Of a DNA stretch of 64,000 nucleotides, positions 27,067 to 32,373 are shown piece by piece. Within the stretch, counting starts at the first letter, position 1; every line of letters starts with the position of its first letter. The position numbers were made by a program, and so were the translations under genes. This stretch comes from Aquificaceae bacterium (GTDB taxonomy: Bacteria > Aquificota > Aquificia > Aquificales > Aquificaceae): assembly GCA_037924335.1 (NCBI GenBank), contig JAXSMZ010000004.1:1-64000 (forward strand). The letters are read 5' to 3'. The notes beneath the pieces are model-generated. The model searched no databases, was not told the origin of the DNA, and saw only the letters and a list, made by a program, of their open reading frames with translations.

Positions 27067-27528
27067 CTAAGGACCTCGTTTGAATTGCTGGGTATACCCG
27101 AGAGGATGTAATATCTCCCCCCTCGCTACACTCACCGCAAGTGTGTAGAGCCGGTCATTGGAGAGCAAAAGCTCCTGTCCGTTCATCTCCATAAAGTATT
27201 CAAACACGACTACCGCAGTCCTTTTGTTGCCATCAACAAAGGGGTGGTTTTGTATGAGCTTTGAAAAGAGAGTAAAGCCAAGAGAGAAAAGGTCTCTTTC
27301 GCCTTCGTATTCCTTTTTGTTAACCGCAGAAGCTATGGCGGACTCCAGGAGGTTCCTGTCCCTTACTCCAAAAACTCCCTTATGCTCTTGCATTATGAGC
27401 CTGTTAATCTCCACCACCTCCTCGCCAGTGGGCAGTATAAGGTCCTTTTCTGAGAGCTTTAGAAGAAGGTCTTTCCTGCGGTCAAGAATAGCTTCAACCC
27501 TTCTATAAAAAAGCGGACTAAACTCCAT
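27067..27528 (-). CDS. doc: Death-on-curing (Doc/Fic) toxin with N-terminal extension
   Basis: GVRD.NLLESA and HPFVDGNKRTA Doc motif. Confidence 0.88.
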   Translation of the reverse strand: MEFSPLFYRRVEAILDRRKDLLLKLSEKDLILPTGEEVVEINRLIMQEHKGVFGVRDRNLLESAIASAVNKKEYEGERDLFSLGFTLFSKLIQNHPFVDGNKRTAVVVFEYFMEMNGQELLLSNDRLYTLAVSVARGEILHPLGYTQQFKRGP

Positions 27529-27837: not shown

Positions 27838-27899
27838 ATGACATATATCATATTGACATTGGTTCTCACTTCAATAAAATATTGAAACCGAATTTCAAT
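27838..27899 (+). promoter_or_regulatory. Promoter of the porin operon with Fur-like box
   Basis: TTGACA(27853)..TAAAAT(27875); palindrome ATTGAAA-CCGAA-TTTCAAT (27881-27899) over the likely start site; ATGAC-N4-ATCAT just upstream of -35. Confidence 0.65.
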
Positions 27900-27913
27900 A
27901 AAGGAGGTATAAG

Positions 27914-29269
27914 ATGAGAAAGGTCCTTCTGACAGCTTTGTTTTCCAGTATGGCTTTTGCACAGACAACTGATGAAAAGATTCAAGAGCTTGAAAAGCAG
28001 ATAAGGATGCTCCAGCAAGAAGTACAGAAGCTAAAGGAAGAACAGAAGAAGGCAGAGGAGACAAAGCAGGAGACAGAAGTCCTAAAGGAGGAGATAAGAA
28101 AGCTCAGGCTTGAGATTGCCATGCCACAGCTTGAGATTAAATCCTACTCTGGATTAGGTCCCGCAGCCTCCAAGGTGCACTTTAATCCAAGGGGTGTGTC
28201 CATCGGTGGTTATGGTGAGATACATTTTACGTACAATCCAGATAAGCGACCCAAGAGTACTGTAGATGCAAAAAGGCTAGTTCTTTACCTTGGTTATGCT
28301 TTTGATGAAAAGCTAAAGTTTAATTCAGAAATAGAATGGGCTCATGCCTTCGTGGAGGGTGCTGAAGAGAGCGGTGAGGTTGAAGTAGAGTTTGCCTATC
28401 TTGATTACAATTTTAACGAAAGATTTGGATTAAGGGGTGGTCTTCTCCTCATTCCTGTTGGCATAATAAATGAGTATCATGAGCCTCCAACCTTTCCAAG
28501 TGTGGATAGGCCATATGTAGAAAGGAACATAATTCCAACAACCTTTAGAGAGTTGGGTTTTGGGGCTTATGGCAAAATTGGAAATTTTGAATATAGAGCT
28601 TATATTACCAACGGCTTAAAGCCTAACGAAGAAGCAGGAGAGAAGGTAGAAAAGGGAGAACTGCTTGGCGGCTTTAAGCAAAAGGGTTTTAAAGCTGCTG
28701 CAGACCAAGTAGCCTTTACAGGTAGAATAGGTATTAACCTGCCATATAACATAAAGGTGGGTGGGAGCACATTTATAGGAGGGGTTCAAAACGATGAAGG
28801 TAAAAGACTTGGCACTGTCAGCCTCTTTTCTCCACATCTTTGGTGGCAGTACAGTGGTTGGGACATAAGGGCGGTGGGGGTATACGGAAGCACATCGGAT
28901 GCTCAAAAGATATCATTAGCCGTAAGTCAAGACCCTGCATGCACATATCTTGGCGACCTCTCAAAATGTACAACGTTTCCAAAAAGGTTCTACGGATTTT
29001 ATACTCAAGTGGCTTACGATATTTTTAGACTTTTTAAAACTAGTGACCAGGAGCTTTATGTCTTTGGTATATATGAAAACTATAATACTCATTCAAGTGT
29101 GCCAGAAGGCTTTGAAAAACCTACAGGCTCAAAGGTGCAAGTCTTTAACCTTGGACTATCTTATAAACCCCATCCCTTAGTGGCTTTAAAGGCTGATTAT
29201 GTGAGGTTTGAGCCAAAAAGTGCCAAAAAACAAAACATATACAGAGCTGCCATATCTTGGATGTTTTAG
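27914..29269 (+). CDS. Outer-membrane beta-barrel porin with N-terminal coiled coil
   Basis: Signal peptide AFA|Q, coiled coil, SIGGYGE, FNSEIE, alternating beta-strand pattern, C-terminal Phe (ISWMF). Confidence 0.85.
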   Translation: MRKVLLTALFSSMAFAQTTDEKIQELEKQIRMLQQEVQKLKEEQKKAEETKQETEVLKEEIRKLRLEIAMPQLEIKSYSGLGPAASKVHFNPRGVSIGGYGEIHFTYNPDKRPKSTVDAKRLVLYLGYAFDEKLKFNSEIEWAHAFVEGAEESGEVEVEFAYLDYNFNERFGLRGGLLLIPVGIINEYHEPPTFPSVDRPYVERNIIPTTFRELGFGAYGKIGNFEYRAYITNGLKPNEEAGEKVEKGELLGGFKQKGFKAAADQVAFTGRIGINLPYNIKVGGSTFIGGVQNDEGKRLGTVSLFSPHLWWQYSGWDIRAVGVYGSTSDAQKISLAVSQDPACTYLGDLSKCTTFPKRFYGFYTQVAYDIFRLFKTSDQELYVFGIYENYNTHSSVPEGFEKPTGSKVQVFNLGLSYKPHPLVALKADYVRFEPKSAKKQNIYRAAISWMF

Positions 29270-29281
29270 GGAGGTATAACT

Positions 29282-30907
29282 ATGAGAAGATGGCTCTTTC
29301 TCCTACCCTTTTTTATCTTTTCCTGTGGTGGAGGAGGGGGAGAGGTTCAAAAAGATGAGTTTGCCAACCCAGAGCCTAACATACCCCTTGAGTGCTATAC
29401 AGATACAGGAATAGTAAGATATGGTAAAGCTATAGCAAACCCATGCTATGTTTGCCACACAAAAGCAAACACTCCCTATGCTAACGAAGTGGATGACTTT
29501 AACCTAACCTTTGTTTATGACTTTCCAGAGAGAATACTAAAAATAGGAAACCCTTGGCTAAATACCATAAGACCAGACCTTACAATAGGTAGTATACCAA
29601 TACCAACAGATACAGAAATCACTGTATGGATAAGGCAAGATAACTGGACCCCCGCCTATCAAAACAGAGGGAAAGGGGATATGGAATATTTTCCCGATGT
29701 GCCACCCCTTTATTCTTATAGTAATGGAACTTACAAGCTTGTAAATATAGATACTGAAGGCTTTGTAGGAAACACGGGCTGGAGAGTTTTCAAATGGAAA
29801 CCTTTTCCGGGATTTTTCCCCACCAACGGAAGGATAGACTCTACCTTAATAAGACTTCCAGAGCCTTTTAGAAAACAAAATGGAATCTCCGATAGGCAGG
29901 TTTATAAGAAAAACCTGGCCATTGTGGAGTGTGCAGTAAAAGGAGTAGAGCCTGGAGAAATGTGTAAAGGGACAGAAGTAGGAGACTTTATTATGCCAAG
30001 CTATTATGAGGGAGATGCTAGCAATGTGCCCGTAATTACATACCAATATCCACCAGGCACAGAGTTTGCCCACCCTCTTTATTACTTGGATCCAGCAAAC
30101 ACCATATCATACAAGGCCTTAAGGCTTAAAGAGATGAGGTATATGAAAAAGATAGCCTACGCACAAGAACAAACCAACGGTGAAGAGGAGGAAGAAGGAT
30201 TTTTCTACGATAGGGGGCTTGTATTCAACGACAGCAAAAACTGGTTGATGGCTGGTTTTATAGAGGACAGGGATGGAAAGCTAAGACCTCAGACTGCTGA
30301 AGAGATGAAGTTCTGCATAGCTTGCCATGGAGGTATAGGTGGGACCGTGGATGGAACCTTTACCTACTGGAGAAAGGTGCCAGGGGCTGGTGGATGGATG
30401 GAGCAGGACTACAATCTTACGGTAAAGAACATAAGGGATTGGAACTACAGTTCCTTTGAAGGAAGCATGGGAGAAGAGACTAATAAGGTCATATCCTATG
30501 TAAAAGGCGAGTACCAGCTTTACTTTTCCATGACCAACGGTGGAGACCACTTTAGAAGCAACTATGAGATAAGGTCAAGGATAAGCAAAGATCCTAACAA
30601 AATATCCTTTCTATTGTCTCCTCAAGACAACATACTTAACAACCCATCCCTTATAAACTACCTTGATGCCCAAGGCTACATAAAACCAGAACTCTTTTTA
30701 CCATCTCCAGAGAGAGCCCTAGGGATAGATAAACAGTACTACAGAATAGTTAAGGCTCAGGCATTTAAGTTTGGTAGAGATGTTTTTGAAGGCCCCTTTG
30801 GTCTATCCTCAGGTGGAAACTCTTTGGAAAAGGATATTCCAAAAGAGACTGGTATAGGTCTATCAAGTATATGGATGGTCATAAAAACCTTTTTGTTTTT
30901 GGAGTAA
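29282..30907 (+). CDS. Uncharacterised di-haem c-type lipoprotein
   Basis: Lipobox IFS|C followed by a Gly linker; CYVCH and CIACH; GGAGG RBS. Confidence 0.85.
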   Translation: MRRWLFLLPFFIFSCGGGGGEVQKDEFANPEPNIPLECYTDTGIVRYGKAIANPCYVCHTKANTPYANEVDDFNLTFVYDFPERILKIGNPWLNTIRPDLTIGSIPIPTDTEITVWIRQDNWTPAYQNRGKGDMEYFPDVPPLYSYSNGTYKLVNIDTEGFVGNTGWRVFKWKPFPGFFPTNGRIDSTLIRLPEPFRKQNGISDRQVYKKNLAIVECAVKGVEPGEMCKGTEVGDFIMPSYYEGDASNVPVITYQYPPGTEFAHPLYYLDPANTISYKALRLKEMRYMKKIAYAQEQTNGEEEEEGFFYDRGLVFNDSKNWLMAGFIEDRDGKLRPQTAEEMKFCIACHGGIGGTVDGTFTYWRKVPGAGGWMEQDYNLTVKNIRDWNYSSFEGSMGEETNKVISYVKGEYQLYFSMTNGGDHFRSNYEIRSRISKDPNKISFLLSPQDNILNNPSLINYLDAQGYIKPELFLPSPERALGIDKQYYRIVKAQAFKFGRDVFEGPFGLSSGGNSLEKDIPKETGIGLSSIWMVIKTFLFLE

Positions 30908-30913
30908 AATATA

Positions 30914-31465
30914 ATGAGAGTGTGTAGGTGGTGCCTTTTTTTGAGTTTTTTTGTTTGTCTGCTTTCCTTTGGAGTAGAAAGCTCCGCAAGAGACTTTAAG
31001 ACCCCAGAAAGAGCAATAAAGGATGTTTTTCCAGGCGCACAGGTAGAGATAAAAAATCTGATCCTCTCTAATGAGCAGAAGGAAAGTATAGAAAAGCTCT
31101 CTGGCACTAAAATGGACACAAGGCTTGTATCGTGGTACATAGCTAAAAGAGATGGTAGAGTAGTGGGCTACGCTTACATAGATACGCATACAGTGAGAAC
31201 TCATCCAGAGGTAGTGCTTTATGCCATAAATCCATCGGGTGGTATAGAAGTTATAGAGGTTCTGTCTTTCAACGAACCTCTTGAATATATGCCTGATGAG
31301 AATTGGCTTAGGCTCTTTAAGGGTAAGGTTTTCACAGGTGAAAACTTTATTCTCAGGAGGGATATCCCAAACATAAGCGGGGCAACCCTTACATCCAGAG
31401 CCATAACAAACAATACCAGAAAGGTGCTTGCCATGTGGAAGGTACTTTTTGGAGGCAAAAAATGA
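30914..31465 (+). CDS. Exported FMN-binding (flavinylated) protein
   Basis: Signal peptide; ISGATLT matches the [ST]GA[ST] ApbE flavinylation motif. Confidence 0.82.
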   Translation: MRVCRWCLFLSFFVCLLSFGVESSARDFKTPERAIKDVFPGAQVEIKNLILSNEQKESIEKLSGTKMDTRLVSWYIAKRDGRVVGYAYIDTHTVRTHPEVVLYAINPSGGIEVIEVLSFNEPLEYMPDENWLRLFKGKVFTGENFILRRDIPNISGATLTSRAITNNTRKVLAMWKVLFGGKK

Positions 31466-32373
31466 GATTTTTTGTATCGGGCAATATAAAGGAAAACAGA
31501 CCCCTTTATTACCTCGTAGTTTTATTTCTGTTCTTTTCTTTTCTCTACTGGTTTGGCTCTTGGTTTTATTTTCATAGCAGGTATGGTTTTAGCTACTCAT
31601 CCGCTTTCAAGTACTTCTTTGGAGACCCATCCTTCCCCGAGAAGGTTTCCTTATCCCAGGTTTTTCAGGACATGCACATAGACCTTTTTATGTACTCTTT
31701 TTTTCTTCTTGTGGTCTTCTCCCTCTTTCTTCTTACTTCTTACTCTAACACGCTTAAGGTTTCTCTCATAGTGCTTACTTTCCTATCCCTTCTTGTCTTT
31801 CTTACGTCAGACTTGGCCATAATCTTTTTGACACCGTGGATCATATACCTTAAGCTCTTTTCCTTCTTCATCTTTCAGGCTTTGGTCGGTTTTCTTCTTT
31901 TTTTTACTTCTCTTTTTTTCCTCTCTGGTGGAGAGGACAAGGGACCGGGGTCTTCAAACATAAGGCTTACTTTATTTATGTTTTCTATCTTCTTGCTTCT
32001 TTTTACCTTTTTTAACTTCTTTCTTTTCTTTTTCAAAATGGGATTTAGTCTTCAAAGCTTAAAAGATTACTACCTTGGAAACCCAAACCTTTTCACAAAG
32101 CCAAAGACCTTTGAGGGCCTCTTTAAAATCTTTTACCCCCACCTTATTTCCATGGCCCTTTTATCCTTTACTGCGGCACACCTTCTGCCTAAGTGGAGAC
32201 TTGCGGTCGGTTTGGGTCTTTTCTTTCTTTCCTTTTTTGATAACCTGTTGGGTTTTTTGATAAGGTTTGTCTCTCCTTATTTTGCTGTGTTTAAACTCTT
32301 TTCCTTTCTGTCCCTTGAGCTATTTCTTCTTTATTCTTGCTATGTTCTTCTTTTGAGCTCAAGGAATGGTTAG
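31462..32373 (+). CDS. Phe-rich inner-membrane protein with internal two-fold repeat (about 8 TM helices)
   Basis: ATGA-coupled start; repeats GFS.....YFFG.P..MHIDLF and GFS.....YYLG.P..YPHLISM..AHL; about 60 Phe in 303 aa. Confidence 0.75.
   Translation: MRFFVSGNIKENRPLYYLVVLFLFFSFLYWFGSWFYFHSRYGFSYSSAFKYFFGDPSFPEKVSLSQVFQDMHIDLFMYSFFLLVVFSLFLLTSYSNTLKVSLIVLTFLSLLVFLTSDLAIIFLTPWIIYLKLFSFFIFQALVGFLLFFTSLFFLSGGEDKGPGSSNIRLTLFMFSIFLLLFTFFNFFLFFFKMGFSLQSLKDYYLGNPNLFTKPKTFEGLFKIFYPHLISMALLSFTAAHLLPKWRLAVGLGLFFLSFFDNLLGFLIRFVSPYFAVFKLFSFLSLELFLLYSCYVLLLSSRNG

Follow-up and report, generated by a model that had tools for sequence, protein, structure and literature searches.

A four-gene Aquificaceae operon with a predicted Fur-type operator, a candidate porin–flavoprotein–cytochrome b route for iron uptake and an optional dihaem lipoprotein

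The window analysed here is the whole stretch of 64,000 nucleotides (nt) at positions 1 to 64,000 of contig JAXSMZ010000004.1 of a hot-spring Aquificaceae bacterium, and our subject is a four-gene operon within it that a first-pass annotation had singled out as a candidate envelope-spanning system for redox chemistry or iron uptake. The four tightly coupled open reading frames (ORFs) described there were all found, all on the forward strand, with 12, 6 and -4 nt between successive genes. In Aquifex the orthologous genes are aq_1259/1262/1263/1264. The individual matches were to aq_1259 (the porin), Aq_1262 (PF27085) and Aq_1264_TM (PF27139), with the PF04205 gene for a flavin mononucleotide (FMN)-binding protein between the last two. 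The genes and their control elements are:

27852..27870, no strand: second, degenerate copy of the iron box, scoring 14.7 bits on the position weight matrix (PWM) described below and overlapping the -35 hexamer
27853..27880, + strand: predicted sigma70-like promoter, TTGACA-16-TAAAAT, matching 11/12 consensus positions
27881..27899, no strand: 7-5-7 palindrome ATTGAAA-CCGAA-TTTCAAT, a predicted Fur-family operator, over the transcription start region
27914-29269, + strand: ORF 1, predicted porin, 451 amino acids (aa)
29282-30907, + strand: ORF 2, dihaem lipoprotein, 541 aa
30914-31465, + strand: ORF 3, FMN-binding protein, 183 aa
31462-32373, + strand: ORF 4, membrane protein, 303 aa counted from its ATG

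The sigma70 promoter that had been claimed ahead of the operon is present as a predicted site, the best of 14 promoter-like sites in the region, where shuffled sequences yield 12.4 such sites overall. The palindrome lies at the start region as described. No other perfect copy exists in the genome of 1.53 Mb, and three Markov shuffles contained none at all; sites with two mismatches are about as numerous as chance predicts (13 versus 6-11 in the shuffles). The degenerate copy at 27852-27870 had been missed. In relatives the palindrome is kept ahead of the porin, often as tandem copies. We made a PWM from 27 porin-promoter sites, leaving out feo promoters and the locus under study, and with it scanned the 150 nt that precede feoA, taking 50 genomes out of the 98 that have a feoA match. 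Scores of at least 12 bits were obtained at 22/23 Hydrogenothermaceae loci. For Aquificaceae the score was at least 12 bits at 8/20 loci and at least 8 bits at 14/20, with the same aligned site present in 20/20, and in a family that does not have the module it was found at 0/7. The background was 5/1478 ORFs of the genome under study. The same box precedes ferritin-like, DUF2325 and apbE genes in relatives and is present at the feoAB promoter of the genome itself, which carries feoAB and two Fur-family genes (C20:13857 and C20:22768). In two genomes (G001 and G132) a few kb at most separate feoA from the module. The box core agrees at 13/16 positions with the dFUR consensus of PMC545781, which is a deltaproteobacterial one, and tandem FUR-type boxes are common to the module and feoAB. 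Because a profile built from porin promoters alone recovers the palindrome upstream of feoA, the iron link of the operon is well supported at the level of sequence, and the resemblance to a Fur box on which the annotation had relied is borne out.

Other genes also carry the box. The second-best box in the genome belongs to a DUF2325-like gene (G000:C16:697-1008), and DUF2325 genes occur inside or beside the module in relatives (L156, L168, L171), making the DUF2325-like gene a candidate member of the iron regulon. At L163:9268-11691 a boxed P-type ATPase gene lies between the porin and apbE genes. A boxed pair, consisting of a gene of ~66 aa and one for an exported protein of ~350 aa with no Pfam match, adjoins the module in Hydrogenothermaceae (L154:6483-7541, L155, L157, L160).

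The annotation had proposed co-localisation of homologues and linkage to apbE as checks, and both links were found across Aquificota. The FMN protein has matches in 88/178 genomes of the class and the dihaem protein in 33/178, some of the latter being a distant paralogue. We examined 20 of the 88 FMN loci, picked for spread and length of contig. The membrane protein was encoded at all 20, the porin at 17, apbE at 10 and the dihaem protein at 7. On these counts the core of the module is the FMN protein, the membrane protein, the porin and ApbE, and the dihaem protein, not present at 13/20 loci, is optional. Where it does occur it adjoins the porin (7/7), and at L008 and L024 it stays with the porin while the FMN and membrane genes are elsewhere. 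The gene order and its conservation, the motifs, an operator sequence common to the module and feoAB, and the presence of feoAB and of apbE, the latter often within the cluster, are direct observations. Two irregular arrangements were seen: at L002 the porin is duplicated, with one copy on each side of the dihaem gene, and at L045 the FMN and membrane genes form one 508-aa frame, through fusion or assembly error.

ORF 3 is, as annotated, an exported protein with an SGAT motif. The motif is at residues 155-158, PF04205 matches at 26.9 bits against a cut-off of 22, and the export signal was judged by eye. The motif [ST]GAT is kept in 18/20 relatives, one of the two exceptions being frame-broken, and FMN is predicted to be carried covalently at this site. 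The flavinylating enzyme would act from outside the window, as had been noted: a single apbE is present in the genome, on contig C25, directly upstream of genes judged by sequence to be exbB-, exbD- and tonB-like (L001). The genome also encodes two TonB-dependent receptors, neither of them among the top box matches.

The membrane protein gave no Pfam or NCBIfam match at E 0.1 and belongs to PF27139 (Aq_1264_TM). The prediction of about eight transmembrane helices in two repeats holds: eight helices are predicted, the halves are homologous (hhalign 98.8%), and the protein, whose AlphaFold2 (AF2) model has a predicted local distance difference test score (pLDDT) of 91, is made of two fused four-helix repeats. 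In Hydrogenothermaceae the protein is often encoded by two adjacent separate genes, which confirms the repeat. Three of the membrane histidines pointed out earlier, H72, H227 and H240, are invariant in 27 sequences. H72 in the first repeat corresponds to H227 in the second; H240 is without an equivalent in the first. A search with a single repeat returned 27 matches, few of them distant relatives. From these residues we predict a haem-b protein.

ORF 1 (27914-29269) is predicted to encode an outer-membrane porin of the Aq_1259 family that is distantly OprO/OprP-like, a call based on the names of its relatives, annotated as porin or OprO/OprP, and on a weak beta-barrel match. It is 64% identical to aq_1259 over residues 70-451, has 2272 homologues and begins with a coiled coil. 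Its conserved acidic and histidine residues are E139, E141, H144, E159, E187, H189 and E190. PF07396 was found on 2 of the 120 porin homologues listed; the porin under study was not among the matches of a PF07396 search, and A. aeolicus also carries a canonical PF07396 porin. No FMN or dihaem neighbour was found at a Prevotella porin locus among ORFs of at least 150 aa, or at a Manganitrophus porin locus in its annotation. A complex prediction for the porin (72-451) with the dihaem protein (24-530) scored 0.01, which counts neither way.

Other families fill this set of roles in Ralstonia wenshanensis and Ideonella dechloratans, two genera only. In both, homologues of the porin and the FMN protein lie together with apbE; a dihaem of the CcP/MauG type (PF03150) is also there, as is a non-homologous four-histidine membrane protein with weak matches to cytochrome b561 or DUF4405. 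These membrane proteins, 155 aa long, were tried as homologues of the Aq_1264 repeat and rejected (E 0.08 and 0.5). Two divergent PF04185 genes lie next to the R. wenshanensis cluster.

ORF 2 was assigned to PF27085 (the Aq_1262 family) by ESM Atlas, and 291 representatives of the family match at 50% clustering. The two widely spaced CxxCH motifs that had been described are at residues 55-59 and 345-349, and two are kept in 68/72 long relatives. Invariant residues are C38, C55, C58 and H59; the second CxxCH, H264 and K290 are near-invariant, and the family alignment contains no conserved methionine ligand. The acidic EEEEEG patch to which the annotation had drawn attention is real. It lies in a low-confidence loop and is found in 2/150 relatives, so the patch is probably not functional and, on the latter count, is ruled out as a feature of the family. 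The family profile found no matches among Protein Data Bank sequences at E<=1, and the protein has no match to PF03150, the domain of bCcP, MauG and BthA. In the AF2 model (pLDDT 82), residues 129-370 match only cytochrome P460/c'-beta in fold searches. These cytochromes took ranks 1-5 of the six VIA-align rows (Z 3.4-5.3; the best with Z 5.3, root-mean-square deviation 3.4 and 133 aligned residues) and ranks 1-8 in Foldseek (best E 0.039), all weak scores, at 14-19% identity; PF16694 also matches several relatives below its cut-off. Each score is weak and the evidence is their agreement, which points weakly to a P460/c'-beta-like middle region. The haems of cytochrome P460/c'-beta are ligand-binding and high-spin, which argues that the dihaem protein is an enzyme rather than a wire, and on the model it looks like a P460/c'-beta-fold enzyme. 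Relatives also occur in fusions with a cytochrome cd1 haem-d1 propeller (two), a PF04185 phosphoesterase (one) and WD40/PD40 propellers (two; P0012, P0051, P0069, P0054 and P0138 in all).

Described routes of iron assimilation include ApbE-flavinylated modules with a membrane cytochrome (PMC8238504, PMC11334425). We favour, with moderate confidence, a related function for the operon, namely reductive iron uptake that is repressed by a Fur-type regulator, flavinylated by ApbE, feeds FeoAB and has a catalytic dihaem as accessory. Iron shortage would take the Fur-family repressor off the operator, leading to expression of the operon, and the porin would admit iron to the periplasm. Electrons would pass from quinol to haem b in the membrane protein, then to the covalent FMN and on to Fe(III), and the Fe(II) product would be imported by FeoAB. 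H72 and H227 are the predicted haem-b ligand pair between the repeats, with H240 as a putative further ligand. The dihaem protein, where present, would stand at the porin exit and set the redox state of the iron or remove peroxide. It would be a ligand-binding, catalytic enzyme with one P460/c'-beta-type haem and one haem near the invariant extra cysteine, and may be likened to the CcP/MauG dihaem of the same slot in R. wenshanensis and Ideonella. In this scheme we infer that Fur binds, which cofactors are present, that a chain leads from quinol to Fe(III), and which way the electrons run.

Several points weigh against this account. The operon encodes no iron importer of its own, phosphate-selective porins are distant relatives of its porin, and relatives of the dihaem protein sit with phosphatases. 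The feoA site of Aquificaceae is weaker and overlaps the -10 hexamer; the box counts were drawn from related genomes and hence are not independent; and a box of 16 bits (G000:C5:39384) stands upstream of a gene that resembles isopropylmalate synthase and has no obvious connection with iron. The box does not reveal in which direction electrons flow. Haem binding by the membrane protein is predicted only from the three histidines, its N-terminal repeat has no second histidine, and its model, when compared by fold, retrieved only generic helical bundles or nothing of significance.

The alternative that fares best concerns the dihaem protein alone and is compatible with the favoured reading of iron uptake. 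Here the dihaem protein is a maturation enzyme that loads or oxidises the metal centre of a Sec-exported phosphatase, or modifies that phosphatase oxidatively, and in Aquificota acts likewise on the porin, or on a substrate that the porin carries, outside the FMN chain. We regard this as possible, if on balance unlikely. Its basis is a survey of dihaem neighbours beyond Aquificota: among 570 loci from metagenomes we took the best 80, and 71 of these, some near-duplicates, encode distant dihaem relatives. A phoX-like match lies within 1.5 kb of the dihaem gene in 48/71, a few short matches perhaps being repeat-driven, and in 25 of the 30 loci with at least 1.5 kb on both flanks. Of the remaining five, two adjoin a PF04185 phosphoesterase and one is 1 kb from a PhoA gene, so that a phosphatase of some type is found beside the dihaem gene in 28/30. 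PhoX holds two Fe(III) and is exported by the Tat pathway, for which the insertion of iron in the cytoplasm has been proposed, speculatively, as the reason (PMC4223295), and four PhoX proteins with Tat signals are reported from one species (PMC5768637). If iron is inserted in the cytoplasm, PhoX relatives of Sec type would need periplasmic help. A Tat pattern was found in 1/39 dihaem-adjacent PhoX-like proteins whose starts are intact, and in that one it lies upstream of the probable start; canonical Aquificota PhoX proteins have it in 11/12 (the twelfth was called by eye). The dihaem BthA, which always adjoins a putative phosphatase, offers a precedent (PMC6405878). Against a maturation role, the neighbour at one locus is of the PhoA type, a Zn/Mg enzyme, and among nine divergent phoX loci of Aquificota the dihaem paralogue adjoins six and is missing from two (one was cut off). 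The signal call, moreover, is a regex test, five of the adjacent PhoX-like proteins carry an RR pair, and Sec-type PhoX proteins come with no out-group base rate.

The dihaem-adjacent PhoX-like proteins keep most of the acidic PhoX motifs, compared by ligand labels that we take to be those of PhoX. Six of the PhoX-like proteins (L054, L072, L087, L096, L103, L119) have the usual C-terminal motif near the N-terminus, a shift that suggests circular permutation. The phoX-linked dihaem paralogue at L242 is frame-broken in G033. In a tree of the dihaem family the porin-linked proteins fall on one side (SH-aLRT 100) with long branches; the tree is quick and unrooted, with 42 chosen rows, and therefore we claim no direction of recruitment. 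No description of the link between dihaem proteins and phosphatases was found in the literature searched, most subscription papers being outside that search. A wider proposal, which we put forward tentatively and hold somewhat less probable than the maturation role by itself, is that Aq_1262 represents a new class of dihaem enzyme on a P460/c'-beta scaffold that manages periplasmic iron redox. In most bacteria it would mature Sec-exported Fe/Ca phosphatases of the PhoX type, which cannot receive iron in the cytoplasm, and a separate Aquificota clade would serve an undescribed Fur-controlled porin–flavoprotein–cytochrome b iron uptake, in a slot filled elsewhere by an unrelated MauG-type dihaem.

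An iron-regulated system may instead be oxidative or protective, with the dihaem protein oxidising incoming Fe(II) or removing H2O2/NO as EfeB does, and with FMN and the membrane protein passing electrons inward to quinone. The P460/c'-beta-like fold and the lack of a conserved methionine would suit such a role, as would the peroxidase-family dihaem in the same slot of two betaproteobacteria and the persistence of the dihaem gene with the porin at L008 and L024. We think it improbable, since the co-regulated importer FeoAB takes Fe(II), 13/20 loci work without the dihaem protein, and FTR1 was found in 0/5 genomes tested, including the present one (99.9% complete), by a search whose control was positive in 4/14. 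A smaller probability still attaches to an operon for scavenging phosphate or a metal other than iron (Zn, Mn, Ni), an idea that draws on the distantly OprO/OprP-like porin, the phosphatases beside dihaem relatives and the two PF04185 genes next to the R. wenshanensis cluster. The box, however, is common to feoAB and ferritin-like genes; no phoX was found in the genome under study, and the promoters of the nine phoX loci of Aquificota yielded no box (0/9). Least probable, and very unlikely in our view, is an obligate conduit, resembling Mtr/Pcc, that takes electrons across the envelope for the reduction or oxidation of extracellular metal, for although every envelope layer is represented and the dihaem protein stands beside the porin wherever an FMN-centred locus has it, there are only two haems, most modules have no dihaem protein, 0/71 distant dihaem loci carry porin, FMN or membrane homologues by hidden Markov models built from Aquificota, and regulation through an iron box suits an assimilatory system better than a respiratory one. 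The four-layer conduit of the first-pass annotation thus stands in part: the FMN protein, membrane protein, porin and apbE are linked, but the dihaem protein is no fixed member, occurs at 7/20 loci, is weakly P460/c'-beta-like and has distant relatives with phosphatases.

Among known systems the favoured iron-uptake module comes closest to the PepSY-, MsrQ- and DUF4405-like flavinylation modules, with which it has in common an exported FMN protein with [ST]GA[ST], ApbE, a histidine-bearing membrane protein and a link to iron (PMC8238504, PMC11334425). It differs in that its PF27139 membrane protein stands outside the PepSY-, MsrQ-, NapH-, DsbD-, Nqr/Rnf-like and DUF4405 families, its partners are a porin and a c-type dihaem, and the importer FeoAB is encoded elsewhere. 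The PepSY-, MsrQ- and DUF4405-like cytochromes have four central histidines for two haems in a shared fold; in the membrane protein here three histidines are invariant. The combination was not found in the main-text sections of PMC8238504 and PMC11334425 that the comparison covered, and these loci may be listed in the cluster tables of PMC8238504. A second precedent is the psp porin of Geobacter metallireducens and Desulfuromonas, described in 2004 as weakly PF07396-like, following a pair of FUR boxes in tandem, with a homologue from A. aeolicus and a predicted role in Fe(II) transport (PMC545781). Tandem FUR-type boxes and an Aquifex homologue are common to psp and our porin, and the passages of that account covered here mention no FMN, membrane or dihaem partners. 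Psp is possibly a member of the aq_1259 family, and only possibly, because A. aeolicus has a canonical PF07396 porin as well. In the literature found, neither the operon nor aq_1258, 1259 and 1261-1264 is described. The operon thus appears undescribed as a combination, and less so in its parts, given that flavinylated iron-assimilation modules are known and that a Fur-boxed porin had been predicted (PMC545781).

Like cytochrome P460/c'-beta, the dihaem protein appears, on weak fold scores, to have a beta-sheet haem domain ending in CxxCH; those cytochromes are single-haem proteins of ~150 aa, in contrast to a 541-aa dihaem lipoprotein with insertions. With BthA and the bCcP/MauG proteins it has two CxxCH motifs in common, and BthA and distant Aq_1262 relatives both lie beside phosphatases (PMC6405878); the lack of PF03150 and the different fold make it an analogue rather than a member. 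EfeUOB, P19/FTR1, MtrAB/PioAB/Pcc and Rnf/Nqr resemble the operon in that they too are redox proteins of the envelope with links to iron or to the transfer of electrons. Their defining components were not found, in agreement with the annotation. The multihaem cytochromes of MtrAB/PioAB/Pcc bind 5-10 haems, unlike the protein with two CxxCH motifs here, and the operon encodes no decahaem cytochrome, FTR1, P19 or DyP peroxidase. The FMN protein has its FMN domain in common with RnfG/NqrC, TIGR01947 scoring 20.9 bits against a cut-off of 102, and no other Rnf/Nqr subunit was found among the four genes.

Elsewhere in the window, a Fic/Doc-family gene (27067-27528, - strand) is divergent from the operon and was not seen as a conserved neighbour. 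The segment 19444-22177 (+ strand) encodes a 472-aa protein that weakly matches cytochrome bd subunit I and carries a CxxCH cytochrome c as a C-terminal fusion; after it comes a membrane protein of 433 aa that matched no family.

If the favoured reading is true, flavinylation-driven assimilation of iron would acquire a branch based on a porin and independent of TonB, and Aquificota would gain a concrete iron regulon with a testable operator. The most novel part of the finding is the dihaem family, which is a candidate answer to how iron-dependent phosphatases without Tat signals are supplied with their cofactor and may thereby bear on iron-phosphorus co-limitation. Two unrelated dihaem families, each found beside phosphatases and beside the porin module, would also make the function of BthA testable by comparison.

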